NCBI GenBank assembly: GCA_965215275.1
Contig: OZ244044.1
Location: 288,001-352,000, forward strand
From: Thermodesulfobacteriota bacterium
GTDB lineage: Bacteria; Desulfobacterota_D; UBA1144; Nemesobacterales; JAJCZQ01
Direction of reading: 5' to 3'
DNA: 64,000 nucleotides
The notes under the pieces were generated by a model, which was not told the DNA's origin, ran no database searches, and saw only the letters and a program-made list of their open reading frames with translations. Positions 1,885 through 55,031 of the stretch are shown here, piece after piece. Each line of letters opens with the position of its first letter. Positions within the stretch are counted from its first letter, which is position 1. Position numbers and translations under genes: made by a program.

Positions 1885-1996
1885 TTGACATTACAGTGGA
1901 ACAGAAGTAAAATATCGCTATCATGAATATAAAAGAGCGTATCTCTGCTACCCCCCCCCATATATACTTGACCTTTCAGCCGGAGATAAGCACAAT
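1885..1996 (+). promoter_or_regulatory. Two tandem sigma70-type promoters
   Basis: TTGACA(1885)-17-TAAAAT(1908) and TTGACC(1968)-17-CACAAT(1991); each has an ATG 9 nt after the -10 box; same layout upstream of paralogue 3. Confidence 0.65.
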
Positions 1997-2029
1997 AGTA
2001 CGATAATGCTGAAGTTTCTACCCCCCCCC
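1951..2029 (+). repeat. Two poly-C tracts (C9 at 1951-1959 and C9 at 2021-2029)
   Basis: Seen directly; each follows an ATG (1923, 2006). Confidence 0.95.
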
Positions 2030-4509
2030 ATAAATTATTAATTCCCTTTTTCTTTTTTCTGTGCCTTGTAAACGTTGGTGCATATGGTCAGACCAGCATT
2101 AATAACTGTGACTCCAGTGCAGCGGTCGAAGCTACTTTAAGACTGGATGGGTCAAAACGCGGAGGAAGTTTAGAGGATGCCGGTGGACTGCTTTACTTTC
2201 GGACACAGGTAAACACAGATAACATTTTTATTGCAGAGATAAGTGTAACCTTCACCTTCTCCAATGATCTGGGATACAGTTTACAGTTGTGTGACAGCAA
2301 TGATGATCTGATAGCAAGTACTACTGAAGTGACTTTGCTAGGGAACGCAGCGATAGCCACAATAAAAACCCGCCTCAGACGAGGAACGTACTATATAATT
2401 GTGGGAAGCAGTGGTGCTACACCCTACGAATTAGGTGTTTCATTTGCTGATTCTCAACAATTATTCAACGACTGTTCAGTTATCACTACCAATTTTCCAA
2501 ATGATCCCTTATACGGCTGTCAGTGGTATCTGAAATATCCAGGAAGTGATCTGACATTAGGCAATAAGCCAATAATCACTGGAGACAGAACAAATATAGA
2601 TATAAAAATAGAAGAGGTATGGGATGATAGTGTATTTGGAGCTGGGATTAACGTAGCGGTGGTAGATCATGGTATGGACACAGATCATGAGGACCTTGCT
2701 GACAACGTGGATACCGCACTTTCTCATGATTACTCCGGGAACAGCGACCTATACAGTCCTTCAAGTGGTCGTGGTACACGTGTAGCTGGCATTATAGCAG
2801 CAGTTGGTGATAACAGCCTTGGAGTAAGAGGTGTAGCACCTCAGGCAGGCATCTACAGTTATAATTTAGCTGGTAACTTCAGTGATACTAACGCAAAGGA
2901 CGCCATGGTCCGTAATATGGATACAACGGCTGTATCTGTCAACAACTGGGGACCGAAGGACCTTCCTGTTCTTACAGAGGCTTCATCAGAGTGGGAAGAA
3001 GGAGTGGAAACGGGTATAAGAGAAGGTTTTGGTGGTAAAGGTGTGTTTTACGTATGGGCGGCAGGGGATGGACATGAAGGATCAGATCAGGCTAATTTTA
3101 ATGAGTATTCCAGCTACTACGCAGTAACTACCGTATGTTCAGCAGAGGTCGTAAAGCTCGGTAATGATTCGAAGTTTGTTACCAAGAGTTCTTTTTCAGA
3201 AGAGGGAGTAAATCTATGGGTATGTGCACCGGGTTCTGATATTGTAACTACCGACAATAACGATGGTTATACTTTTGAGTTCCCTGGAACATCAAATTCA
3301 GTTGCTGTCGTTTCAGGAATAGCAGCACTGATAAGAGAGGTAAACAGTGATATTAGCTGGAGGGACCTGAAACTGATACTGGCAGGTTCAGCTCGCCATA
3401 CTCTCAGCAATACTAATCATCTCTTTTTCGACGACCAAAACTGGAGGACAGAAACATTTAAATACGGTTCTGATTCAGAGCAGTATTCTTACAATCCAAA
3501 GTTCGGTTTTGGCATGGTAGACGCCGCTGCGGCAGTAGAACTTGCCGAAAATTGGACCAATGTTCCACCGCCAATGAGACCCGTGACGGTTTCCTCGGGT
3601 AATATCAATACGGTTATCCCAGACTTCAGAACGGGAAACGCAGAAGATGTTTCCGCTGTTTTCAAACTGACCGTACCTGATATAGATATACCAGATACTG
3701 AGGTATTTACAGAATTTATAGAGATAAATCTCAATTTCACTCACCCTTTCTTTCCTTTTTTAGATATAGAAATAACCTCCCCTGACGGTACCCTGTCGAA
3801 ACTCACTGAGGCATATCCAGCAGATGCAATATCACATTTATCTGACAGATCTCTTACTATAGACGACTTTGACTACACGGGCAGAGATCATCGTTTTGGT
3901 TTAGCTAAACATTTAGGAGAAAACCCTGCTGGAGAGTGGACTTTAAAGATAACTAATAATTCACCTGCAGGTACGGGGACCTTACACTCATGGAACATTA
4001 AGGTCTATGGTCATATGTCTGGTGAGACGCCGACGTTTAACAACTGGACCATACCTGATAAGAACTACGTGCCGGGAACTGCAATAAAGGAAACACTGCC
4101 TGAGGCAACAGCAGGGAATGGAGAATTAACCTACAGCCTTTCCCCTCTTTTACCAGATGGAGTTACTTTCAGTGAAGCTGACAGAGTGCTTAGCGGAACA
4201 CCAACTGCTGTATCTTCTGGCAGTTATACATATACCGTAACGGATGAAGATGGAGATAAGGATGAGCTGAGCTTTACTATCAGGGTAACAACTACGCCTC
4301 CAGGACCAACGGACCCACCACCAACAACAGGACCAAGACCACGAAGACCGACATCATCAGGTAGTGATGGAGGCGGAGGTGGAGGAGGATGCGTGATATC
4401 TGATCAGAGCGAAGCCGTTCCTGATATGCTCACAGCAGTGGCATCTCTGATGCTTATACCTGTATCCGTTGTTATCAGAAGAAAGATAAGGTCTCGGATA
4501 AAGACCTGA
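2006..4509 (+). CDS. S8 kexin-like pseudo-protease 1: signal peptide, 1 PPC-like repeat, S8 domain, P-domain, 1 Ig-like (He_PIG-type) repeat, Gly-rich-Cys/TM/basic tail; frameshifted at C9
   Basis: ATG 2006 is out of frame; +1 C joins it to HKLLIPFFFFLCLVNVGAYGQ and ORF 2287-4509; AVVDHG, RGTRVAG, WAAGDG, GTS; GEWTLKI P-domain. Confidence 0.85.
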
Positions 4510-19255: not shown

Positions 19256-20512
19256 ATGCCGGAGAGGAAACTAATAACAAAGGAAAAATACCAGAACAAG
19301 TTGATGGCTATTTTTTCGACTCAGGAAGGTGATTTGATAGAGAAGGTCAATCGTAACAACGATAGGTTAAATGCAAAGGAGATTACAGAAGAACAGTGGT
19401 TGATCGAAGATCGCACTCTGAAGGCAGAAGGTGCAGATATCAGAAGCACAAAAGATCTTTGGGAACAGCTTGACAGCTATGTGATCAACACTGGAGATTA
19501 TAGTCCGGTATTTGCTGATCATCATAAAATGCCCGTTCCATCGTTTGATAAAGCATTTTCTGAGATGATAGGCACTCCATCTCAGAAAGGAAAGGTCAAT
19601 TCATATGAGATGAGTGAACGTGACTGGATAACGCTTTTGAGGGGTGGGGGTATGGCAGTTCCGTTACAGGCAGCTGTAGGCGATATGTCGACTGGCGATG
19701 CTGTTGCAGAAGCAACTAACACGTCAGAGGTTGTTGAATACCTGATGAATCCTATTACTATCTTAGATTTTATCACTGTCCGGATGATAAATACGAGACA
19801 GATACGTATGATCCGAGAAGATACTACTAAAGCAGATTTTGGTCTGACCGCCAAGGTAGCAACCAGAGATTGTGTGTCTACTGGTGCTTTCTATCGTTTC
19901 AATGAGGAGTTGATGCTGGATGACAATAGAGCTCACTTCCTTCCATATGTAAGAACAAGGTTGCCGATGGAGTTTCGCCTTCAGGTCGAAACGTGGTTAT
20001 ATCGTGGAGCTGGTACAAGTAACACTCCTCTTGGTTTTACTGCTGAAACAGGTAGATCTACCTTGACTGACCTTGCACACAGTGGAGCTTCTGTGCAAAA
20101 ACGGCTTGAAGCCTTTGAGGATGCTCGTGTAAAAATCTTTACAGATGCAAAAACACGTGCCAACTTGTTCATTGTGCATCCATCACATTTTTCCGAGTTT
20201 TTAACTCTGAAAAACAGTGATAATAGGTATCTGTTTGCTATAAACACAGTGAAAACACAGAGTGGAAAACAGATCCCAACAGTTTGGGGTGTACCTATTG
20301 TAGAATCTTTCGCAGCTGAGAAGAATAAATTCACGGCTGTGGATATGGGGTTTGTATCCCAGTATCTTCTGAAGGGAAGCACAAGGCTCCGTGAAGGTCA
20401 GATAGATGACGACCTGCTGAAAAACAAATGGACGATCATAATTGACTCCTATATGAATCAGTATACCGTTCGTCCTAAAGCGGTCTGCACATGGGGACAG
20501 GCGACTTCTTAA
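19256..20512 (+). CDS. HK97-family phage major capsid protein
   Basis: N-terminal coiled region; LYRGAGTSNTPLG, IVHPSHF..LTLKNSDNRYLF, TVWGVPIVES, VRPKAV. Confidence 0.85.
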   Translation: MPERKLITKEKYQNKLMAIFSTQEGDLIEKVNRNNDRLNAKEITEEQWLIEDRTLKAEGADIRSTKDLWEQLDSYVINTGDYSPVFADHHKMPVPSFDKAFSEMIGTPSQKGKVNSYEMSERDWITLLRGGGMAVPLQAAVGDMSTGDAVAEATNTSEVVEYLMNPITILDFITVRMINTRQIRMIREDTTKADFGLTAKVATRDCVSTGAFYRFNEELMLDDNRAHFLPYVRTRLPMEFRLQVETWLYRGAGTSNTPLGFTAETGRSTLTDLAHSGASVQKRLEAFEDARVKIFTDAKTRANLFIVHPSHFSEFLTLKNSDNRYLFAINTVKTQSGKQIPTVWGVPIVESFAAEKNKFTAVDMGFVSQYLLKGSTRLREGQIDDDLLKNKWTIIIDSYMNQYTVRPKAVCTWGQATS

Positions 20513-22751: not shown

Positions 22752-25700
22752 TTATGTATTTATCTGAGATCTTCTCTTTTTTCTAATTATTACTGATACA
22801 GGTATTAGCATCAGAGATGCTACTGCTACGAGCAGATCAGAAGCAACTTCGTTCTGACCGGAGATTGCACATCCCCCACCACCGCCTGCATCACTAACTG
22901 ACGTCGGACCTCGCGTTGGTGGTCTTTGTGTTGGTGGCGGCAGAACAGTTGGAGTTGTTACTTTGATCGTAAAACTCAACTCATCCATATCCTTATCTTC
23001 ATCTATCACCCTGTACATATAATTACCAATTGATGCTCTGGTCGGTATTCCGCTTATCGTTCGGGTAACTGAATTAAAACTCAATCCAGTAGGTAAAGGA
23101 AGGTTTATACTGTAAGTCAGAACTCCATCCCCTCCCGCTGCCTCAGGCAGCGTCTCTGATGTTGTCTGTCTCCCTACTGTGTAATGCTGAGTGGAAATGG
23201 ACTCTCCATCAAAGGTCGGACTCCTGTCTGCTTCTACCGTGATACCAAAACTCAACTCGTCCGTATCTCCATCTTTATCTGTTACCGTATACGTGTAAGT
23301 AGTCTCAAGTGCTGCAGTAGTGGGTGTGCCACTTAACTCTCGGATAGCTTCATTAAAACTCAATCCAGCAGGCAATGCTGGGGTTATACTGTAAGTTAAA
23401 GGCGCGTTTCCTCCCGTTGCCTCAGGCAGCGTCTGCGGGGTTATCAGGCTCCCTGCTATGTACTCCTGATCAGTGATTGTTGTACCACCAAAGGTCGGAC
23501 TCCTGTCTGCTTCTACCGTGATACCGAAACTCAACTTATCCGTATCTCCATCTTCGTCTGTTACCGTATATGTGTAAGTAGTCTCAAGTGCTGCAGTAGT
23601 AGGTGTGCCACTTAACTTTCGGGTAGCTGAATTAAAACTCAATCCAGCAGGCAATGCTGGGGTTATACTGTAAGTTAAAGGCGCATTCCCTCCCGTTGCC
23701 TCAGGCAGCGTCTGCGGGGTTATCAAGATCCCTGCTATGTACTCCTGATTAGTGACCGTTGCACTACCAAAGATCGGACTCCTGTCTGCTTCTACCGTGA
23801 TATGGAACGTCAAATCATCCGTATCCCCGTCCTCATCCGTTACTGTATATGTATATGCTGTCCTGCCCACTGCAGTAGCCGGTGTTCCGCTTATCATTCG
23901 GGTAACTTCATTAAAACTCAATCCAGCAGGTAATTCTGGGGTTATACTGTAAGTTAAAGGTTCATTCCCTCCAGTTGCAACAGGCAGCATCTGCGGGGTT
24001 ATCAAGCTCCCTGCTATATACTCCTGATTAGTGATCGTTTCACCGTCAAACCTTGGCACTGTGTCTCCGGCCCTGTGACCATAAACTTTAATGCCCCATG
24101 AGTGTAAAGTCCCTGTATCTGTATCTTCAGGAGAAAAGTCAGATATTTTCAAAGTCCACTCTCCAGCAGAACTTTCTCCCAAGTGCTTGGCTGAACCAAA
24201 ACGATGAGTGTATCTGCTGTATACGAAATCTGATGCGCTGAGTGAAGTGGACAGTGCTCCTGATGCAAATTCCTCAGTAAGTTTAGATACAGTACCAACA
24301 GGGGACATTATCTGTATATTTAAATCTGGTAAGAAACCATGGGAGAGTTCGAGATAAATCTCTACAAACTCTGTAAAAAGCTCATTATCGGATATGGTCA
24401 GTCTGGAAATAGTTTCTCCGTCTCCGGTTCTGCTGTAGTCGACAATTGTCATATTAATAGTAGACGAGGAAACGGTCAGGGTTCTTATTGGCGTTGGTGG
24501 AATCCTGTTCCAGTTCTCAGCAAGTTCTACTGCTGCATCAGCATCTACCACACCGAAACCGTACTTTGGATTGTAATTATACCTCTCTGAATCAGAACCA
24601 TATTTAAGTGCTCCTGTCTCCCATCCTGAGTCTGAAGCGTCGTTCTTACGAGCTGAAGCTGCAAGTATTAACTTAAGATCTCTCCAGCTAAGCTGGCCGT
24701 TCACCTCTCTCATCAGTGCTGCTACACCTGAAACCTGTGCTGCTGAATATGCCGTTCCACTTGCATCAAAAATATATCCATTGTTATAAGATTCAGTAGT
24801 TGTAATATGTTCTCCTGGAGCACATACCCATAGATTTACTCCTTCTTCTGAAAAAGAACTCTTACTTCCCTCTCCATCTACTGAACATATTGTAGTTACT
24901 GCGTAGTAGTTAGAATACTCGTCAAAATTAGCCTGATCTGCGTCTTCATGTCCATCTCCAGCCGCCCAAACGTAAAATACCCCTTTACCACCGAACCCTT
25001 CACTTATACCCGTTCTCACTCCTTCTTCCCACCTTGATAAAGCCCCGCGAAGAAGAGGCAACTCATCCGGTCCCCAGTTGTTGTTCGATACGGCTGTTAT
25101 ATCTTTATTACGTATCATAGCATTTTTTACGTTAGCGTCGACAGGATTCCGCCAATTATAACTATTGTCTAAATCATAATTATAGATGGTTGCCTCTGGT
25201 GCTACACCTCTCACTCCAAGACTGTTATCACCGACTGCTGCTATAATGCCTGCCACACGTGTACTTGAATAGTCATTGTGGTATCCGTATCCTATGTAGT
25301 AATGATGATTCAGACTGGTATTTACATTATCAGTAAGGTCCTCGTGCCCTATGTGAACACCATCATTTACCACTGCTATGTTAATTCCAGCACCGAATAT
25401 GTCATCATCCCAGACCCCTTCTATGTTTATATCTTCTCCTGCTGTTATTGTCTTACCGAAAATATTCCGTCCTGTATTTTTCAGATACCACTGACAGCCG
25501 TAGAGAGGTTCACTTGGAAAATTGGTATTACTGGAGTCACAATGATCAATATAATCAGAAAGAGTAGGATCAGTTGCTTCAGCTGTAAGTCGAGAGTACT
25601 CTGTATTACTATTGCTTTCCACAACGATATAGTACGTTCCTGATGGGACGATAGCTGTAATCTCCCGAAGTCTACCTGCCAGAAGTCTACCTGTACTACC

Positions 25701-27469
25701 GTCTATCAGATTATTATTGCTGTTACACAAATGTATACCGTATTCGTGTGAACTGTGTCCGAGATCAAGACTGTCAAAAATTATACCTATATCTATGGTA
25801 CTAAGAGGGTCTGTTAAGTATGCCTTATAGTAATGTAGTCCTCCACCACTAGCGAAACTTCCACTTTGTCGCGTGCCGCCCAACCACAATCTTCTAATAT
25901 TACTTGCACTGGAAGCACCTTCACAATAATAAGAAGGATCAGGATCAGTTTTTGTAGCTCTAAGTTCACTGTAGCTTATAGAATCATCGCCTCCCACAAC
26001 GATATAGTGTGTTCCCGATCTTACGGTAGCTGTAATACTTTCACGACTTACGCCAAACTCATCACTTGTACCAGTAGTACTGTCTATCAGACCATCATTG
26101 CTGTCACACAACTCTAAACTGTATTGGACCCCACCAGAACCTTGGCCGAAGGTTATATCTATATCTAATTCTGTAAGAAGGTCCGTTACTTCTATCTCAT
26201 AGTAACGAAATTCAGCACCAGTATTGAAACTTCCACTTTGCTCCATTCCGTCAAGCGTCAGGATAGTTGAACTTTGCCCTGAGTTGCAATTATTAGAACC
26301 AGCTCTGATATAGTAGTCTGTAGAATAATATTTATTGGTATAGCCTTCCAAAACGATATAGTACGTTCCTTGTTCGACAGTAGTTGTAACATGCCGACCT
26401 CTCCATGTACCGGTGGAACTGGCTATTATATTATTATTGCTGTCACACAAAACTAAACTGACTGCGGAAGAACTGACATCAACTGTTGAGGTCGTAAATA
26501 CAATTACTTTGCTAAGAGGGTCTCTTACACTTACTTGATAATAGTGCAGTTTACCAGCTCTTAAACTTTCATGTCGTCCATGTCCGTCCAACCACAATCT
26601 TCCAATATTACTTGTACTGGATGCACCTTCACAATAATCGGAATAATCACTTGTTGTAGCTGTAAGTCCAGAGTAGTCTATACTATCATCACTTCCCACA
26701 ACGATATAGTACGTTCCCGATCTTATGATAGCTGTAATATTCTCAGGACTTGCAACACCACTACTTGTACCAGTAGCACTGTCTATTAAAGCATCATCGC
26801 TGTCACATAAAACTAAAACGTAGTCGACACCATTACCAGTACCAAAAGTTATATCTATATCTAATTTTATACCAGGGTCTGTTACATCTATCTGATAGTA
26901 ATGCAGTTCACCATTAGCATTGAGACTTCCACTTTTTGAATCTCCGCCAACCTCCAGCGTATCTTCGGTACCTTCACTGGCATCGCAATATTCGGAAGGA
27001 GCAGGAGCATCTTCATTAGCACTGACATAGTAGGCTGCACTATACTGGCTATTGATATAGCCTTCAAAAACGATATAGTATGTTCCCGGCCCGACCGTAG
27101 CTGTAACACGCCGACTTTTCCCCGTACCTGTAGAACTAGTTATCAAATTATTATTGCTGTCACACAACTCTAAACTTACTGTGGTACTATAAATATAACT
27201 AAGTGAAAATCCCGCCGTTATAGTTACTTTGCTAAGAGGATTTGTTACATCTATCTGATAGTAACGTATTCCACCCCAGCCATTGAAATCGCCATTGAAA
27301 GTTCCACTTTGCTCCGTTCCCTCAAACCCCAATATAGCTTCGATACTTGCACTGGAGTCACAATTATTACTCTGTCCATATGCCTCAATGGATACAAAGC
27401 ATAGAAGAAAAAAGACAAAGAGAATTACTAATTTAGATGGGGGGGGGTAGAATCTAAATAAATGTTCAT
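22752..27469 (-). CDS. S8 kexin-like pseudo-protease 2: signal peptide, 5 PPC-like repeats, S8, P-domain, 4 Ig-like repeats, Gly-rich-Cys/TM/basic tail; frameshifted at C9
   Basis: ATG 27469 reads MNIYLDSTPPHLN*; +1 C at 27439-27447 joins it to PSKLVILFVFFLLCFVSIEAYGQ and ORF 27332-22752. Confidence 0.85.
23216..24050 (-). repeat. 279-bp tandem coding repeats (Ig-like units)
   Basis: TCGGACTCCTGTCTGCTTCTACCGTGATA recurs at about 23216, 23495 and 23774; units nearly identical. Confidence 0.9.
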
Positions 27470-27479
27470 AACCTGTTTT

Positions 27480-27509
27480 ATTCTACTTTGTATCCTGACC
27501 GAATGTCAA
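27480..27509 (-). promoter_or_regulatory. Sigma70-type promoter of S8 paralogue 2
   Basis: TTGACA-18-TAGAAT on the minus strand, ATG 10 nt downstream. Confidence 0.65.
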
Positions 27510-31608: not shown

Positions 31609-31747
31609 TTGACATTGCAGCAGAACAGAAGTAGAGTATAATCATAATGCGTATCCCTGTTATCCCCCCCCCCCACCACCATATACTTGACCTTTCAACT
31701 GAATATAGCTATCCTGTAACTACAATGTCAGGTTCATCCCCCCCCCC
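31609..31747 (+). promoter_or_regulatory. Two tandem promoter-ATG-poly-C units
   Basis: TTGACA-17-TAGAGT, ATG 31647, C11 (31664-31674); TTGACC-17-TATCCT, ATG 31725, C10 (31738-31747). Confidence 0.7.
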
Positions 31748-34700
31748 ATCAATGCAGTAGTCCAGTAAGCAGTTCCTGCTGTAACGGCAGACGGTTCATA
31801 TTTCCCTTTGTCTTTTTTCTTCTGTGCATAATGGTAATAGCTGCAAAAGGGCAGAGCAGTCTGGAAAAAACATTATCTGAATGCAGAGGTATCAGTGCAG
31901 ACACAGAAGATCCGTTATACGGATGTCAGTGGCATCTGAAGAACACTGGGCAGCTTAGTTTTTCCGGAAAGGCAGTAACAGCAGGAGAAGATATAAACAT
32001 AGAAGGGGTCTGGGATGATGGCATATCCGGTGCTGGAATTAACGTAGCTATTGTAAGTGACGGAATAGACCTTTCACATGAGGACCTTTCTGCAAACGTC
32101 CGTTCCGGACTGAACTGGAGTTATTTTGAAGAAAACAATTCTGAAAGCGTTGATTTGTCTGACAATTCATCCTTTACCGGAACACGAGCGGCAGGTGTTA
32201 TTGCAGCGACTGGATATAATGGTCTGGGAGTAAGAGGTGCAGCACATAAGGCAAGCATCTATAGTTATAAATTAGCTGGTAACTTCAGTGATGCGGACAT
32301 AAAGGATGCAATGGTCCGTAATAAGGAAATAACAGCAGTATCGGTTAACGACTGGGGATATGAGGACGTAGTTTTTCTTCAGGGGGCTCTGGCTGCGTGG
32401 GAAGAAGGAGTGGAACTTGGTATAAAGAAAGGGTTTTATGGTAAAGGGGTATTTTACGTCTGGGGAGCAGGGGACGGATATGAGAATAACGATCAGGCTA
32501 ATTTTTCTGAATATTCAAATTACTACGGGGTAACGGCCGTGTGTTCAACAGACGGATTTGGAAAAAAGAGTACTTTCTCAGAAGAGGGAGTAAATCTTTG
32601 GGTATGTGCACCTGGTTCTGATATTACAACCACTGATAACAACAACGATTACGTTGCAGCTTCCGGAACTGTCCTTTCAGCATCACAGGTTGGAGGAGTG
32701 GCAGCACTGCTGAGAGAGATAAATGGAAATCTGAGCTGGAGGGATATAAAACTTATACTTGCAGGTTCAGCACGTCAGAACGATGTTTTTAACATAAGCT
32801 GGGAGACTGGAGCAGTTAAATACGGCTCTGATACTGAAAGATATAAATACAGTTATAAATACGGATTTGGAACTGTAGACGCAGAAGCAGCTGCAGAGCT
32901 TGCCAGAAGCTGGAAAGGTGTTGGAGAAATGAGGACAGTCAGCGCCTTTTCAGATAATGAAATAACAATCCCTGATGGAGAAGCAGATGGAGTTCTTGTT
33001 TCCAGGGTTACGGTGCCGGACCTTGAAGAGATCTTATTTACGGAGTTCGTGGAAGTTGAACTTGTTCTCTCGTGTGACTGCGTACAGGACCTTAATATAC
33101 AGATAACCTCTCCTTCCGGGACGGTATCTGAACTTGTAAGGGAGTCTGTCAGTGGAACTTCAGATGAAGAAAAGTGCGTCAGTTACCTGAGAAAAAAACA
33201 TCGTTTTGGGTCGGCTAAACACCTCGGAGAAGACCCTTCCGGAGAATGGACACTTAAGATCTCTGATACTGCTTCCGGAGATGAAAAAAATGGAAAAAAC
33301 ACTGTTACCTTACACTCATGGAGCATTAAGGTCTATGGACATAAGAAGGGTTTTTTTTCTCAGGACCTTGGCAGGGGAATAACTCCTAAACGTATAGAGT
33401 GGCCCTCTCAAGAGATAGGTGATCACGTGTATAGAACAGGGGTTGAAATAACACCATTAATGCTGCCTGTGGCAACGGGGTCTGGAACAATAAGCTACAG
33501 TATAGAGCCTCCTTTACCTGATGGATTGAGCTTGACCCGACCTTTTTTCCATATAATAACCGGAACACCCACTACTCCGCAGGAGAAGACTACGTATGGA
33601 TGGTTTGCTGAAGATGATGATGGGTCGAGTTTTGTTGGTTTTTCTATTACGATAAAAGACGTGCCGAGTTTCGGAGGTCAGACAATTAGTGATCAGGATT
33701 ATATAGTAGGGGTTCAGATACCACCATTAGTACTGCCTCGTGCAACGGGAGGGTCTGGAACATTAACCTATAATATAATACATGGTTGCTGCACTGGAGT
33801 ACCAACTGGATTGTTTTTTAACAGTGGTACCCGGAGAATATCTGGAACTCCTACTGCTGCATCGTCTGATACTTATACATACAGGGTAACGGACGAAGAT
33901 GGAGAGACGGCTGAACTTGAGTTCAGGATCAGTGTAAGAACTGAAAGTGAAATACCAAGCTTCGGCAGTCAGACGATAGATGATAAAGTGTATTATAATG
34001 GTGAAACAGTAACAGAAACGCTGCCTCAGGCAACGGGAGGGGATGGAACTTTAAGTTACAGTTTAACTCCTACTGGTACTTTACCTTTTCAGTTGGCGTT
34101 TATCACAGCTACCCGAACGATAAGTGGGACACTCAGTCTCAGGCCAGAGGCAATTCCTTGGACCAGGAGTTTTAAATATACCGTAAGAGACGCAGACTCA
34201 GATACGGGTGACGGTGATACTGACAGTCTGACCTTCTCTATTACGGTTGATGACAGAACACCGACATTCGGCAGTCAGACGGTAGAAAATCAGGTTTTTG
34301 TTAATGGTTCAGCAGTAACGTTAACGCTGCCTGAGGCAACGGGAGGGGATGGAACTTTAAATTACAGTTTAACTAATAGTATAGGTGATCCAATTAACAT
34401 TAATGGATTGGATTATAACGAAAACACCAGAACGTTAAGTGGAACGCTCAACGTTTCTCCAAGAGGATTACCTATAACTCAAACTTATACCTACAAGGTA
34501 ACTGACTCTGATACCAATACTGATGATGGAGATACGGATGAGTTAACGTTCAGTATCACTATACAAGAAGACAGCGTTCCAACCTTTGGTGGTGAGACGA
34601 TAGATGATCAGGTGTATATAGCAGGAAATCGAATAACGCCAGTAACACTGCCTGAGGCAACGGGAGGGAATGGAGATTTAACATACAGTTTTAACCCTGC

Positions 34701-35883
34701 TCTGCCTTCTGGATTGGATTTTAACCAGAACACCCGGGTGTTAAGTGGAATTCCAACTGCTGCAAGTGGTCAGGTTCTTTATACGTATACGGTAACGGAC
34801 GAAGATGGAAGTACAGATCATATACAGTTCAATATCACGACAGAGAATGACAGATTTCCAATCTTTGGCAGTAACAGCAGTATAAGTGATAAGGAGTACA
34901 CGGCAGGAGTTCAAATAACACCAGAAACGCTGCCTGCTGCAACAGGAGGAAATACTCCATTAACTTACAGTATAACTCCTACATTACCAATTGGATTGGA
35001 GTTTAATAACAACACCCGAGTGTTAAGTGGAACACCAACTACTGCAACGAGCAGGACTACTTATACATATACGGTAGAAGACGCAAATGGAGACAGAAAC
35101 AGGTTGACGTTCAGGATCACAGTAAGAGCAGCAGAACCAGACACGGAACCGAGCTTCGGCAGTGAGACAATCCCTAATCAGGGTTATGTAAAAGATCATA
35201 CAATAACACCGGTAACGCTGCCTCGTGCAACGGGAGGAAATGCTCCATTAACTTATGGTATAACTCCTTCTTTACCTTCTGGATTGAACTTTAACACAGC
35301 TACCCGAGTGATAAGTGGAACACCGACCACTGCAACGCCTGAGAATACTTACACGTATACGGTTACTGATATAGATGGAGATACTCGCAGTTTGACGTTC
35401 AGGATCACAGTAAGGACTGACGGCGCACCAACCTTTGGCAATGAGACAATTCGTGCTCAGTCTTATGTAATAAGGAGTCCAATAAGACCATTAACGCTGC
35501 CTGTGGCAACGGGAAGAAATGCTCCATTAACTTACAGTTTAGCTCCTGCTTTACCTGCTGGATTGAGCTTTAACGCAAACACCCGACGGATCAGTGGAAC
35601 ACCCAATACTGTGACAAGCAGGAGAACTTATACATATACGGTAACGGACAGTAATGGAGAGACGGATGAGTTGAGTTTCACGATCAGGGTAACTGCTCCT
35701 CAGTCGCCAACGCCACCAGGAGGAACAAGAACATCAGGTACTGATGCAGGCGGTGGTGGTGGGTGTGCGGTCTCCGATCAGAACAGCGTTGTTTCCGGTC
35801 TGCTCGGAGCAGTGGCATGTCTTATACTTATACCTGTATCAGTAATTATCAGAAGGAAGAGAAGACATCAGATAAAGACTTAG
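31725..35883 (+). CDS. S8 kexin-like pseudo-protease 3: signal peptide, S8, P-domain, 8 Ig-like repeats, Gly-rich-Cys/TM/basic tail; frameshifted at C10
   Basis: -1 C joins ATG 31725 to ...RRFIFPFVFFLLCIMVIAAKGQ; the ORF-track start at 31831 lies inside the signal peptide. Confidence 0.85.
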
Positions 35884-39533: not shown

Positions 39534-40757
39534 TTACCCATACTGTTCTGAGTGCAGAGTTCCTCTATCCCTGTTCTCTTTTGATCTGATACTCTTAGCA
39601 CTCATCGGGAGTATTGCTACCTTATTCCCGCCCGACATGAAGTCTCCTTCATTAAGAGTATTAATATTTTTACCTGCGTTTATATCCCTGTCTTCCGAAT
39701 AACCGCAATACATACAGTTAAATACTCGTTGATACAGAGGCAGTTTTGGATTTACCTTTCCGCATTCAGAACAGGTTCTTGTTATATAATGAGCTTTAAC
39801 TAAAACCAGCTTGCCTCCAGCTATCTCGGCTTTGTAAGCAAGTTGATGTTTGATCTTACCCCATTGCTGTTCTGTTATGGATTTAGCAAGATGATGGTTC
39901 TTTACCATTCCTTGTATATTCAAATCCTCTAATTTTATATGATTACACTTCTTTACTATATTGGTGGTCATTCTGTGTATAGCGTTATTTTCACGATCGG
40001 TAGTTCGTTCCCATTCCTTCGCTAACGATAAAACTTTCTTCTTTCTGCTGTCAGAACCTTTTACCGCTCTTGAAACAATTTTTTGCTTTCGTTTAAGTTC
40101 CTTCCTGTCTATCCTGATACCGGGAACTTTAGTTCCATCTGAAAAAGCTAATCTGTTTGTTATTCCAAAATCTATCCCTATGGATTTATCCAAAGGTCTC
40201 TTCTTCTCATCTGTAAACTCACACAGAAACTGGAGCTTAATTCTTAACGAACTTTGAATTACTCTTATTATTGTTTTAGGTGCTTTCAAACAAACACACT
40301 CTGGCATACTACCTTTGAAAGATAATCTGCCAAGTCCCTTTATCGTTAAATATGTTCTTCTGCCTGTCTTCTTTATGTTTTTATAATTGTTTGTTTCAAA
40401 TGAACGAACTGGTCTGTTTGGACTTTTATATTTAGGTCTGCCAACCTTCCCTACCTTCTTACCTGCTTTCTTATTCCTTAAATAGCTCAAATAAGGACTA
40501 TATGCATTATCCAGTCTTTCCAGAACGCTTCTTTGAGCTACCGCATTAAACTTTTCGAATCCCTTGTCTTGCTCTCGGACCTCAGTCAACTGATTAAACT
40601 GTTCGTATTTAGAGATAGTTCTTTCATACCAATCCCAGGATCTTAACCTATGGTACAAGGCACTGTTATACAGATCGGTAAGCTGATTTAAGAATTCATC
40701 CAGTCTTTTATGAAAACCACTATCTGCCTTTACAGTTCGTGTAATCGTTCTGATCAC
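39534..40757 (-). CDS. tnpB: RNA-guided endonuclease TnpB
   Basis: RuvC-I IGIDFG, RuvC-II IKLEDL, zinc finger CSECG..CMYCG, RuvC-III DRDINA; all three acidic residues intact. Confidence 0.93.
   Translation of the reverse strand: MIRTITRTVKADSGFHKRLDEFLNQLTDLYNSALYHRLRSWDWYERTISKYEQFNQLTEVREQDKGFEKFNAVAQRSVLERLDNAYSPYLSYLRNKKAGKKVGKVGRPKYKSPNRPVRSFETNNYKNIKKTGRRTYLTIKGLGRLSFKGSMPECVCLKAPKTIIRVIQSSLRIKLQFLCEFTDEKKRPLDKSIGIDFGITNRLAFSDGTKVPGIRIDRKELKRKQKIVSRAVKGSDSRKKKVLSLAKEWERTTDRENNAIHRMTTNIVKKCNHIKLEDLNIQGMVKNHHLAKSITEQQWGKIKHQLAYKAEIAGGKLVLVKAHYITRTCSECGKVNPKLPLYQRVFNCMYCGYSEDRDINAGKNINTLNEGDFMSGGNKVAILPMSAKSIRSKENRDRGTLHSEQYG
39540..39660 (-). ncRNA. Putative omegaRNA scaffold overlapping the tnpB 3' end
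   Basis: Expected position; pairings UCGGG/CCCGA, GAGUGC/GCACUC and an AGAG-GAA-CUCU hairpin; conserved in two orphan copies. Confidence 0.65.
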
Positions 40758-49928: not shown

Positions 49929-50129
49929 ATGAAAAAATCTAATACTTTCTCAGAATCAAAAGATACAGAAGTATATCTTGTCCCCGGAAATGAGTTTTTT
50001 AACAAAGCTGATACTTTAAAAGCAATTGAGAACTTTGACAAAGCAATAAAGATTAACACGCAACATGCAAAAACTTACTATAGCCGAAGATGTGACGAAA
50101 CTTTTCTAAAGAGGTACTTCCTGCAATGA
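49929..50129 (+). pseudogene. Truncated TPR gene paralogue (5' part)
   Basis: MKKSNTFSESKDTEVYL matches the N-terminus of ORF 47740; upstream 49710-49930 duplicates 47458-47740. Confidence 0.8.
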
Positions 50130-53100
50130 CTTCACTGGACCGCCTTCTTGAATCTTACCGAACCGACTCTATCAGCGAGCGAGATAAGGGCACTGCATTT
50201 GAGAAACTAATCGCCACATGGTTGGTGACCGACCCCGTGCAGTCAAAGCGATTTGCTCGTGTCGAACTCTGGTCTGACTGGGCACGCCGCAAGGATATTG
50301 ACAGGACAGACACCGGGATTGATCTCGTCGGCTCCTTGCATGATGGCAAGTTTGCCGCGATCCAATGCAAGTTCTTCGATATCAACCGGAGCATCCGCAA
50401 GGAGGATATAGATACCTTCATCTCTGCCTCGGCAAAGTCAGCATTCGCCGAACGTCTGATCGTCGAGACCACCGACAGACCGTGGACTCTAAATGCCAAG
50501 ACGATGCTGTACGGCCAGAGGGTCCCAACGGCAGTCGTCGGTCTTCGCGACCTCCGCAACAGCCAAGTGGACTGGTCCACGTTCGCAGCAACGGGCAAAA
50601 TCGCACGTCCCAAACCGAAGACCTTACGGCAGGACCAAGTCGAGGCACTGGAGGCAGTGAAGAAAGGGCTGGCCGATGCCGACCGTGGCAAGCTTATCAT
50701 GGCCTGTGGGACCGGAAAAACCCTGACTGGGCTACGCATCGCCGAGGAACTCTCGGGTTCTGGCAGGCATGTTCTGTTACTGGTGCCGTCCCTTGCCTTG
50801 ATGTCCCAGACCGTGTACGAATGGTGTGCTAATACGGTCTTGTCACTCTCCACCTTTGCAGTGTGCTCGGACACTCAAGTGGGCAGAAGGCGCCGAAGTC
50901 GACATGATGTTGCAGAGCTTGAAGTTACCGACCTCGCCTTTCCACCCACGACGGACGCGGTTTTGCTGGCACGAGAGGTCGCTGCATCGGACGCCGACTC
51001 AATGCGCGTCGTTTTTGCAACCTATCAGTCAATCTCGGTAATCGCAGCCGCACAGGCAAATCATGGACTTCCTGAATTTGACCTGATTATCTGCGATGAA
51101 GCTCACCGCACCACAGGTGTAACTTTCCCGGGTGAGAACCAGTCTAATTTCGTAAAGGTGCACGACAACGAAACGATCCGAGGCTGCAAGCGGCTCTACA
51201 TGACGGCAACACCACGGATCTACGGTGAGAATGCAAGGACGAAGGCACGCGACACGCAGGCCGTTCTTGCCTCAATGGATGATCCTGACCTCTACGGTGA
51301 AATTCTATTTTATCACGGGTTCGCGCGGGCGGTTGAGAGCGATATCCTGACAGATTACCGCGTAATAGTTTTAATCATGGACGAGGGGCAGGTGAGCACT
51401 GCGGTGCAGAATCGCCTTGCCGACGAGAACACTGAACTTGTACTTGACGACGCCACGAAAATCATCGGTTGCTGGAGAGCCTTGTCCAAGAGTGGTCTTA
51501 TGGGAACGACCGTGGACGGTCTTGAACCGATGCGTCGCGCTCTTGCTTTCTGCCGGGACATCAAAAGTTCGAAACTTGTTCAAAACGAGTTCGAGCAGGT
51601 TGTCGCTGAATTTAAGTCTAAAACTGGTAAAAATGAGCGAAAAGGTGTCCTCTGTAAAGTCCGGCATGTAGATGGCACCTATAACGCCCGGGATCGGGGC
51701 CGGTTGCTCGACTGGCTAAAGGAAGACACGGGTAAAAATGTCTGCCGGATCCTGAGCAATGCACGATGCCTGACCGAAGGTGTTGACGTGCCAGATCTCG
51801 ACGCGATTCTATTTCTGCATCCACGCAACAGTCAAATAGATGTTGTGCAGGCCGTGGGTCGGGTGATGCGCAAAGCACCCGGCAAGCGGATGGGCTACGT
51901 CATTTTGCCGGTCGGCGTACCGCCAGGTGTTTCCACAGATGTGGCTCTCGCCGACAACAACAAATACCGAGTTGTCTGGCAGATCCTGAATGCACTACGA
52001 GCCCATGACGACCGTCTTGACGCAGTCATCAATCAGGGTGGCCTTGGGCAAGATATCAGCAGCCGTATTGCTATCATTGATGGCAGATCGCCGATTGCCA
52101 GCACTGAACTCCAAGCGGTCACGGCAAAAATTGAAGACCTGCCCAGCCGTCCCGGAACACGCGGATTAGAGATCGGTCGAGGAGATTTGAACAACTACGA
52201 AAACAGGAGCGAACAACAAGAACCATTGCAGTTGGTAATCAATGAGTTTTCCCGGGCAGTGATGGCGAAGATCGTCGAGAAGTGTGGCACGCGCGACTAC
52301 TGGGAAGACTGGGCAAAGGACGTCGCCGAAATTGCAAGACGGCATGTCACCAGAATCGCCGGACTTGTACAGGAAAAGGACAGCAACGCTTCGTCGGTTT
52401 TCCAGAAATTTTTTTTGGAACTCCGCGACGACCTCAACGAGTCTGTCACGGAACACGATGCCATTGAGATGCTGGCACAGCATCTGATTACTTGTCCCGT
52501 ATTTGATGCACTATTCGAAGGTCATACCTTCATCAACAGAAACCCTGTCTCGGTTGCCATGACAAAGGTCCTGTCGGTGATCGACGAAGCACAAGTCGAG
52601 CGCGAGGCCAGAACCCTCGAAGGATTCTACACCTCCGTGCGAAAGCGGGCGAAGGGAATTACCGATCCGCTGGCACGGCAGAACCTAATCGTCGAGCTCT
52701 ATGACAAGTTCTTCCGGGGCGCGTTTCCGCGTACCACGAAAATGCTCGGCATCGTCTACACGCCGGTTGAGATCGTTGACTTCATCATCCGGTCGGTAAA
52801 TGAAGCATTGCAGGATGAGTTTAACCAGACACTCGGTTCGGAAGGTGTCCATATTCTAGATCCATTTGCCGGTACCGGCACCTTCATCACCTGTTTGTTG
52901 CAATCGGGACTTATTGAGCCCGAAGACCTGGAGCGGAAATACCGCAAAGAAATCCATGCCAACGAGATCGTTTTGCTCGCCTACTATATCGCCGCCGTCA
53001 ATATCGAATCCGTCTTCCATTCGGTTTCCAGACGGGACGACTATCTTCCCTACACCGGTATCTGCCTTACCGATACCTTCGCCCTGCACGAGAGCGACGA

Positions 53101-55031
53101 CGAATTGTCGTACTATATGGAAGACAATACCGGTCGTCGTAAACGACAAAAGAAAACCGAAATTCGGGTCATTGTCGGCAACCCGCCCTATTCGGTCGGT
53201 CAAAGAAGCGAGAACGACAACGCAAAGAATGTGTCTTATACAAGGCTGGATGAGCGAATCCGGACCACATATGCAAACCGGTCGAACGCCAAGACAGTTC
53301 GGAATCTGTACGACAGCTACATCCGTGCAATCCGTTGGGGCAGTGACCGCCTCGGGAAGGCCGGTGTAATGGCATACATTACCAACAGTGCATGGGTCGA
53401 GCGTTCCTTCTCCGACGGATTGCGTAAGTGCCTAGCCGAGGAGTTTGCCAGCGTTCATATATTCCATCTTCGCGGCGACATCCGTAAGAACATGCTGTCC
53501 GGCACTACAGGGGAGGGTGAGAATATCTTCGGACAGGCGAGCATGACAGGAGTTGCAATCACAATCTTCGTCAAGAATCCCGATGCCACAGAGCAAGGTT
53601 GCATTCTGTTCCACGATATCGGGGATAAACTAGACCGGAAACAGAAACTTGATCGGATTAGGTGTTTCGGAAGCACCTGCGGAATCAAGGACACCGGCGG
53701 ATGGAAACAAATCATTCCAGATGAGCATGGCGACTGGATGGACCAACGCGATCAGCACTTCAAGGCGTATCCTGTGGTCGGAGACAAGAATAATAGGAAA
53801 AGAACCGTTTTATTTGATAATTATTCCTTGGGCGTAGTTACCGGCCGGGATCCGTGGTGCATTAATCCATCCCGGAACGCACTGGTCAAGAACATTGAAT
53901 CGACAACCTCTTTTTATAACAGTATATTGGAATGCTGGCAGGCAACGAAGCAACGCGCAACGATCGGGTCTGCAGAAGGCAAGCTCCCTGCAATAGACGA
54001 ATTCGTAACGATTGATACCAGCAGAATCAGTTGGACTCACTCTCTCAAGCAAGACCTCCGAAAAGGGAAAAAACTTCAACAGACCGATGGCATATTTGTC
54101 CCTTGTCTGTATAAGCCTTTCACAAAGCAATGGCAGTTTTTCAGCCGCCGTCTCAATGAGAGGGTCTATCAGATGCCTCGTATCTTCCCGAATGACAAGC
54201 TACCCAACCGTGTAATTGCAGTGACGGGAAAGGGAGGACGGTCCGGATTTTCTGCACTGATGATGGATGTGCTACCCAATATAGACACAATCGACAAGGG
54301 TCAGTGTTTCCCTTTCTGGCTTTATGAAGAGGGCAAGGAAATGCGGACCAATCTCTTCGGAGAGCAAATTTCCAAATTTCGGAGGATTGATGCCATTACC
54401 GATTGGGGTCTTCAAATTTTTCGCTCAGCGTACCCGTCGGAGACCATCAGTCAGGAAGACATATTTAACTATGTTTACGGGATTCTGCATTCAGAAGATT
54501 ACCGAAGTCGCTTCCGTGCCAACCTCGTCAAGGAACTACCTCGAATTCCTTTAGTGAAGCCAGTTGAGGATTATCGCACCTTCCGCGATGCCGGGAAACA
54601 CCTTGGCGAACTGCATGTTGGTTACGAGTGTGTCGACCCCTATCCGGCGGTCATCGACATGGACGGCAAGTTGCTTACGGGATCTCACCCCCCCCCCCGA
54701 AGATATCTACAGGGTCACAAAGATGAAGCACCTAGAGTTGGGCAAGAACAAGGACCGATCAACAGTGATCTACAACAACCACATCATCATTAGAGACATA
54801 CCCGAGGCAGCGTGGGAATATGTGGTTAACGGAAAATCGGCGCTCACTTGGGTCATTCAGCGCCAGAGCGTCAAGACCCACAAGGAGAGCGGGATTGTCA
54901 GCGACTCCAATTGCTACGCGACCGAGACGGTGGGCAATCCAAGATATCCACTTGACCTATTTTTGCGAATCATTACCGTCAGTCTTGAGACAGTGAAGGT
55001 CGTACGCACCCTTCCCGAATTGGCAATCTAA
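50126..55031 (+). CDS. Type ISP restriction-modification enzyme (Mrr-like nuclease, SF2 helicase, m6A methyltransferase, TRD), frameshifted at C11
   Basis: DTGIDLV..AIQCK; MACGTGKT, DEAH; LDPFAGTGTF, GNPPY; the C-terminus continues in ORF 54564-55031 after C11 at 54688-54698. Confidence 0.92.

Follow-up and report, generated by a model that had tools for sequence, protein, structure and literature searches.

Most of what is known about simple-repeat phase variation comes from mucosal pathogens in culture. NalP of Neisseria meningitidis belongs to the subtilases, and its gene has a 5′ tract. For nalP, tract lengths from 6 to 15 are described, with 7, 10 and 13 in frame, as confirmed by immunoblot (PMC3723659). 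The Hop adhesins SabA, OipA and BabA of Helicobacter pylori are varied by repeats in the 5′ coding region together with gene conversion, and sabA has a promoter tract too (PMC3960876). The phasome of Campylobacter jejuni comprises many loci in a small genome, with G/C tracts mainly 9–10 long (PMC6321876, PMC8355987), which amounts to 18–39 phase-variable genes per genome and 81 in one doylei strain (PMC6321876).

Here we report on a poly-C tract at the 5′ end of a kexin-like gene, called paralogue 1, in a stretch of 64,000 nucleotides (nt) from a Thermodesulfobacteriota bacterium (contig OZ244044.1; the whole stretch is the window, with positions counted from its first letter). A C9 between start codon and signal peptide puts this gene out of frame, and such tracts recur throughout a large family of paralogues. 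Slipped-strand phase variation of surface pseudo-proteases in this Dadabacteria-like lineage, with the tract setting the frame, is in our judgement the probable explanation, and we hold it with good confidence. The C9 would then be a heritable on/off switch on a likely surface-anchored kexin-like protein without catalytic His. Our search of the main texts of largely open-access papers found none that joins Dadabacteria with phase variation and, to judge from titles and the openings of abstracts, none on the present system.

Frame logic at paralogue 1

The 5′ end of paralogue 1 is built from the following elements.

1885–1913 (+): promoter-like site P1, TTGACA-17-TAAAAT, 11/12 consensus matches
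1923–1925 (+): ATG1, 9 nt past the P1 −10 box, no Shine-Dalgarno (SD) 4-mer; predicted near-leaderless start
1951–1959 (+): tract 1, C9
1968–1996 (+): promoter-like site P2, TTGACC-17-CACAAT, 9/12 consensus matches
2006–2008 (+): ATG2, 9 nt past the P2 −10 box, without an SD 4-mer
2021–2029 (+): tract 2, C9, out of frame; same length in the contigs of public runs X1–X3

Translation from ATG2 through the C9 gives a product of 11 amino acids (aa), ending at TAA 2039–2041. The long frame of paralogue 1 (1999–4509) is closed by TAG 1996–1998, and its first ATG, GTG or TTG is the TTG at 2287, downstream of the signal peptide. When the products of other lengths were computed from ATG2, C7, C10 and C13 gave 833, 834 and 835 aa, respectively, and C8, C9, C11 and C12 gave 8–12 aa. 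The tract length thereby decides in which frame a gene that is otherwise intact is read, and by this route one length in three gives the full protein. The first-pass annotation had described this arrangement, including the lack of a start before the signal peptide and C7 or C10 as in-frame lengths, and its elements are all present in the sequence; the peptide it quoted is the C10 product, and the C7 product has one Pro less. It had also stated that all three window paralogues carry a tract and that such runs are otherwise rare in the window. Indeed, five of the six C/G runs of at least 7 in the window stand at paralogue 5′ ends, and the sixth, a C11 at 54688, lies inside a Type ISP restriction-modification gene. 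The observation is real, and the poly-C at 2021–2029 is likely a phase-variation switch. This reading, already proposed in that annotation, is supported by tract position, length, family-wide recurrence, length differences between paralogues and purifying selection on out-of-frame genes.

Upstream lies a second unit that had gone unmentioned, consisting of a promoter-like site, ATG1 and tract 1. At its present C9 the ATG1 frame ends at TAA 2004–2006, overlapping ATG2. A C10 would join it to the ATG2 frame, and C8 or C11 would stop it after 15–16 codons. From ATG1 the full protein results from only one tract-length combination in nine, with both tracts in frame simultaneously, as the two remaining frames meet a stop ahead of tract 2. 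In both units the −10 box lies 9 nt before the ATG, and each ATG is preceded by a sigma-70-like promoter. Since the two units match, ungapped, at 27/41 positions, they are likely an old tandem duplicate. With neither ATG preceded by an SD 4-mer, in contrast to ordinary genes, the messages for ATG1 and ATG2 would be near-leaderless. Leaderless translation as a general habit of the genome was ruled out, as SD 4-mers of ordinary genes peak 5–11 nt before the starts and the 16S end is canonical.

The protein and its genomic family

The remainder of paralogue 1 encodes the following parts.

2030–2088 (+): remainder of the predicted signal peptide in the long frame, hydrophobic core ending AYG; cleavage site placed by eye
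2089–2460 (+): N-terminal beta-sandwich, predicted by fold match to be PPC/collagen-binding-domain-like; most variable part
2638–3414 (+): kexin/furin-like S8 domain (PF00082), with Asp 2665 and Ser 3292 kept
3718–4002 (+): proprotein convertase P-domain (PF01483)
4030–4290 (+): He_PIG Ig-like domain (PF05345)
4369–4509 (+): C-terminal Gly-run-Cys, hydrophobic helix and basic end; stop at 4507–4509

By sequence and fold, the S8 domain matches best furin (E 6e-37) and Kex2 (TM 0.83 over the target), followed by ASP (structure model of paralogue 1, pLDDT 75.8). The succession of S8 and P-domain and the kexin/furin fold are those of kexin-like S8B proteases. Alignment with furin places Arg at the catalytic His (2770), a replacement that the first-pass annotation had not noted, and Asp at the oxyanion Asn (3067). 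With its Asp-His-Ser triad broken, the product is a kexin-fold protein and not an active S8B member. The N-terminal domain has no Pfam hit and is recognised by fold only: its model, made from the single sequence (pLDDT 63), resembles the ColG collagen-binding domain over 102 aligned positions (Z 10.5, rmsd 2.9). It may serve in adhesion, a shared fold by itself showing no function.

The C-terminal part is likely a sorting/anchoring tail. A NalP-type C-terminal beta-barrel is absent, and paralogue 1 ends in the Ig domain, a Pro/Gly linker, the hydrophobic helix and the basic tail. Against JDVT-CTERM and Synerg-CTERM, the three window tails score below the cut-offs (best E 0.02, 14.9 bits versus a cut-off of 22.5). 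The GlyGly-CTERM/rhombosortase system was rejected, as no rhomboid was found in the 99.87% complete genome. The one PF02517 gene of the genome (CPBP/Rce1-like intramembrane protease) matches the Mrt models below cut-off. It lies directly upstream of paralogue 678057 (L174:1477–2121, −) and is a candidate sorting enzyme for the Gly-Cys tail.

The other two window paralogues are arranged as follows.

22752–27509 (−): paralogue 2, single cassette with −35 at 27509, −10 at 27485, ATG at 27469 and C9 at 27447–27439; out of frame
31609–35883 (+): paralogue 3, double cassette with P1 at 31609, ATG at 31647, C11 at 31664–31674, P2 at 31687, ATG at 31725 and C10 at 31738–31747

In paralogue 3 the C11 is in frame with the second ATG and the C10 is out of frame. 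Paralogue 2 has lost Asp, His and Ser, and the triad of paralogue 3 is lost as well.

The three paralogues of the first-pass annotation hold as a count for the window, not as the size of the family, since the genome (1,990,023 bases, one contig) contains 57 S8 open reading frames (ORFs). The family ORFs span 183.7 kb, or 9.2% of the genome, so that about 9% of its DNA is devoted to one, likely switchable, family. Long homopolymers are clearly over-represented: we counted 78 C/G runs of length 6, none of length 7 and 139 of at least 8 (mode 9), compared with about 1–4 of at least 8 expected by geometric extrapolation. Thus, the tracts cannot be put down to chance. Of the 139, 81 stand at family 5′ ends, three inside family members and 55 elsewhere. 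A tract before the signal peptide is found in 51 genes (49 with S8, two without), in 28 as a double and in 23 as a single cassette. Reading from the start 8–10 nt past the −10 box, nine are in frame and 42 out; the alternative count is 11/51 in frame, if an ATG 6 nt past the box is used at two loci. The in-frame copies encode ordinary signal peptides, and the frame is open through to the tail in 46/51. Mid-gene C/G runs of at least 8 coincide with a frame junction in 12/21 cases, compared with 0/50 for C/G runs of 6 and 9/134 for A/T runs of at least 8. The stored gene calls of four out-of-frame genes, which we inspected, begin at internal start codons, so that these genes are annotated truncated, with their signal peptides lost.

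All 28 double cassettes read through from ATG1 in just one of nine frame combinations, and only gene 1028816 is now in this state. The read-through frame is free of stops in 24 distinct spacers carrying 49 variants, where 11/135 possible spacer changes would create one (P about 0.016, uniform model). This suggests that the ATG1 read-through frame is in use, but the same bases are constrained by P2.

An intact Asp-His-Ser triad remains in seven of the 57 copies and is lacking in 50. At least one triad residue is missing from every one of the 49 S8 genes with a 5′ tract, and also from 513692, a member with an internal G13. In the seven intact copies no frameshift tract precedes the signal peptide; among them, 427584 has an upstream run resembling tract 1, and 603598 and 667925 have internal tracts. 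In a quick tree, which leaves aside the two family ORFs without S8 match, the 49 tract-bearing S8 genes form one clade with five proteins of other assemblies (SH-aLRT 99) inside the intact family, so that the gain of the cassette and the loss of catalysis fall on the same branch. As the members are one clade, we set aside a Fisher test of tract versus triad. The triad is kept in 58/58 outside relatives among those listed and, by motif, in 5/5 Dehalococcoidia loci, the Asn motif not being picked up in one of these (L033). In two subgroups (n = 10 and 29), dN/dS was 0.42 and 0.28 for the S8 domain and 0.27 and 0.24 for the P-domain, and it was 0.70 for the N-terminal domain, values that gene conversion may blur. 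The catalytically dead domains are under purifying selection.

The family genes mostly, and 109 of the 139 C runs, lie on the contig + strand, either side of the GC-skew extremes. Two members show additional irregularities. Member 513692 carries a frameshifting G13 where S8 begins plus an A9G11 run just upstream of the ATG (sites 518332 and 518941), and 667925 combines an in-frame C17 with a separate frameshift in the first Ig repeat (668426 and about 667930). The 55 non-family tracts include poly-C runs behind the starts of several genes that look like DNA methyltransferases (with DPPF/SPPY motifs recognised by eye) and others within a TPR-like family, whose copies are partly in frame and partly shifted (example positions 828763, 834720, 1001504, 1490289, 1814694; 19539, 20737, 1899949, 1914729, 1964984). 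The Type ISP gene of the window (50126–54793) has its C11 (54688–54698) in the C-terminal specificity domain. With C11 it encodes 1555 aa and with C10 or C13 1634–1635 aa, and it is likely a phase-variable restriction enzyme.

Proposed slippage and its alternatives

In the mechanism we propose, replication slippage would add or remove a C, and lineages would display different subsets of the proteins. The near-consensus P1 would yield a near-leaderless message, which the double cassette would control as an AND gate; a route dependent on tract 2 only would be open through the weaker P2, or through re-initiation where stop and start overlap. If so, it would be the logic of the tandem cassette (1/9 versus 1/3), and not the slippage rate, that fixes the ON fraction. 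The proteins may be adhesins, ligand binders or decoys, not proteases, and recombination among paralogues would contribute further variation. Indeed, the allele at the probable paralogue-3 locus of another assembly is 78% identical, compared with 96–99% for five neighbour proteins, and paralogue 2 differs from its other-assembly allele by one 95-aa repeat; therefore, recombination acts too.

The tracts mutate faster than their flanks between paralogues: lengths differ in 36/67 pairs with identical 15-nt flanks and in 25/39 pairs with identical 20-nt flanks, the pairs not being independent. Together with the frame logic and the over-representation, this gives the locus the sequence hallmarks of a contingency locus.

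Several points weigh against slippage as we propose it. The in-frame share is below one third (9/51, P 0.01; 11/51, P 0.05). The contigs of runs X1, X2 and X3 span both paralogue-1 tracts without a gap, those of X2 and X3 stopping 28 letters past tract 2, below our 31-letter rule, which leaves four pairs on a strict count. A second 15-kb region gave 7/7 bridged tract/run pairs equal to the assembly, one of them from a second study. All 11 strictly bridged pairs (six tracts, two studies, among the pieces listed) hence equal the assembly; these are contigs, which drop minority alleles, with eight pieces per run among those listed (2295 and 1538 more), and one of X1–X3 may be the source of the assembly. 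X1–X3 are deep runs, with contig depths of 100–700, and none of the runs listed with this DNA is of RNA. No length change in these contigs could be assigned to a single locus between samples, and switching is therefore inferred, not observed. The +C/−C contigs at 1496590 and 1496660 are indistinguishable from paralogues. Two X5 contigs are too weak to count, one (depth 4.8) with three unmatched letters right after tract 1 and one (depth 2.7) with one C less at a tract-1 site, a length found in no tract 1 of the assembly. In other assemblies, four of five tract-bearing orthologues show the same apparent state. The fifth is that of 1482199, a gene in frame in this genome, for which the gene calls of two other assemblies begin at an internal start; this would fit slippage, but a different 5′ end at this locus in run X6 could explain the change without it. 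The association of the cassette with loss of catalysis goes back to a single evolutionary event rather than to 49. The promoters and starts were recognised by consensus alone, and the two promoter matches in 820 nt compare with 1.7 in shuffles; the support for the promoters is the recurrence of the box, with 10–11/12 matches 8–10 nt before the ATG in most tract-bearing paralogues, which share ancestry, and not the promoter count alone. An AND gate would have an effect only with a weak P2 and little re-initiation. Finally, mutS (868-aa frame) and mutL (617-aa frame) are intact, unlike in C. jejuni, so that switching rates may be low, possibly slow enough for consensus states to persist. Loss of mismatch repair as the cause of the tracts was ruled out by these intact genes.

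Many of these points fit one-way inactivation, in which slippage is rare and fixed silent copies are kept as gene-conversion donors for a few expressed copies. Equal tract lengths across runs, the intact mismatch-repair genes, the excess of out-of-frame copies, the divergent paralogue-3 allele, the other 5′ end in run X6 and the five of 51 copies without a tail in the same frame would all be expected. We regard it as unlikely, however, since the out-of-frame copies retain near-consensus promoters, signal peptides and tails that silent donors do not need. Moreover, the tracts remain at 8–13 with none at 7, their length varies between near-identical copies, and the same tract type occurs in unrelated methyltransferase-like, TPR and restriction genes.

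Still less probable is recoding, by RNA polymerase slippage or ribosomal frameshifting, which would give a constant low full-length fraction from every copy and no heritable switching. C runs close to a start codon are shift-prone, and the apparent stability of tract lengths between samples fits this idea. But out-of-frame copies need both +1 and +2 shifts, both common, and nine copies need none, so that there is no single programmed shift direction, and the poly-G in promoter spacers of relatives (see below) would be left unexplained. An assembly homopolymer error hiding a gene that is truly in frame is very improbable, even though the single-contig assembly suggests long reads and one of X1–X3 may be the source sample, since the X1–X3 contigs cross both tracts ungapped, the 7/7 further pairs match, completeness is 99.87%, A/T runs rarely stand at frame junctions and an error cannot place 81 runs at the same position in a single family. 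Agreement of the public-run contigs argues directly against such an error: they show C9 at paralogue 1, and the fixed in-frame length that accurate reads would then have given did not appear.

A metagenome pattern scan returned 54 loci, none with S8 or a genome match, and was dismissed as chance hits. Among 172 candidate short proteins, none matched the in-frame paralogue-1 N-terminus at E 0.001 or better, which is evidence in neither direction.

Building on slipped-strand switching, we put forward more tentatively, as a scenario we would not yet favour outright, that a kexin protease gave rise to some 50 catalytically dead proteins coating the cell, each with its own switch, more than half of them under a duplicated leaderless AND-gate cassette (1/9 ON) and hence rarely displayed. 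Other families of the order would have built comparable repertoires on unrelated surface proteins with different repeat cassettes, and the contingency strategy would then be shared across a lineage that lies outside the known pathogens. The pseudo-protease clade would then be a natural case of an enzyme scaffold turned into a variable binding protein. The source organism may be host-associated.

Relatives and known systems

The named neighbours of the Obg protein belong to Thermodesulfobacteriota, Ca. Dadabacteria and Deltaproteobacteria, at 57–64% identity, and a place of this genome in Dadabacteria is likely. Among 40 relatives we found no comparable S8 expansion; the full S8-plus-P matches there are single, at about 30% identity. 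Genomes of the order are uneven in their tract content, with 21 runs of at least 9 in G001, 43 in G005 and 113 in G025. In G001, of the same genus, a poly-G separates the −35 from the −10 box ahead of lipoprotein-like genes with Ig repeats at 3/7 loci checked by pattern (L092, L093 and L096; G9–G10, spacers of 16, 16 and 17). In G025, promoter-spacer poly-G is present in 21 of the first 30 of the 113 loci, 17 of them before collagen-like lipoprotein genes. The cassette there (L144–L173) reads TTGACT-spacer-poly-G-TAAA(C/A)T, with spacers of 18–24 nt and none of 17. Genes of the type ATG, poly-C, signal peptide also occur in G005 and G025. Relatives within the order use different repeat cassettes, and on different surface families, which favours phase variation by slippage. 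At five G005 loci (L114, L122, L132, L136, L140), C runs of 15–56 precede signal-peptide-like sequence in a surface family; some of the very long ones may be long-read artefacts.

Elsewhere in the window lie a lone HK97-type major capsid protein gene (19256–20512), with no other phage gene recognised nearby, and an IS605-family TnpB gene (39534–40757; OrfB_IS605 plus Cas12f1-like TNB domain).

Compared with known proteins, the S8-plus-P-domain order is that of kexin/furin (S8B) and of Aeromonas sobria ASP, from which paralogue 1 differs by Arg for the catalytic His. A gene of about 205 aa, secreted-looking, precedes two of the 57 family members (207 aa; L112:6963–7583, −, and contig 431545–432168) and the S8 gene in three of five Dehalococcoidia loci (L031, L032, L034; 50% identity). 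It has no Pfam or NCBIfam hit, and no such gene stands at the paralogue-1 locus. Atlas links it (0.92) to a cluster in which 48% of the members carry ORF_2_N. It is possible that it encodes an ORF2-like external chaperone and that the pair was exchanged horizontally. CspC of Clostridioides difficile, a single germinant receptor, likewise has a subtilase fold without a full triad; its NCBIfam match here is weak (E 0.0003–0.0008, far below cut-off), and we do not know it to be phase-variable, expanded or membrane-tailed.

To our knowledge, the phase-variable loci of C. jejuni are not concentrated in one family. Its 18–39 genes contrast with 139 tracts here, and it has no functional mismatch repair, whereas mutS and mutL are present here; 139 tracts in 2 Mb with both genes intact exceed even the 18–81 genes per Campylobacter genome (PMC6321876). 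The Hop adhesins resemble the present family as paralogous surface proteins whose switching depends on repeats near the 5′ end of the coding sequence. They differ in that CT dinucleotide repeats serve a handful of genes for outer-membrane proteins of another family, and the available parts of the source describe no duplicated promoter-ATG-tract unit (PMC3960876). In NalP and MspA, as in paralogue 1, a poly-C within the coding sequence sets ON or OFF (PMC3723659). NalP, however, is one gene for an active protease and autotransporter, whereas here 51 paralogues carry the tract, with no intact triad in the 49 that have S8, and add an Ig stalk, a C-terminal helix and a two-tract cassette.

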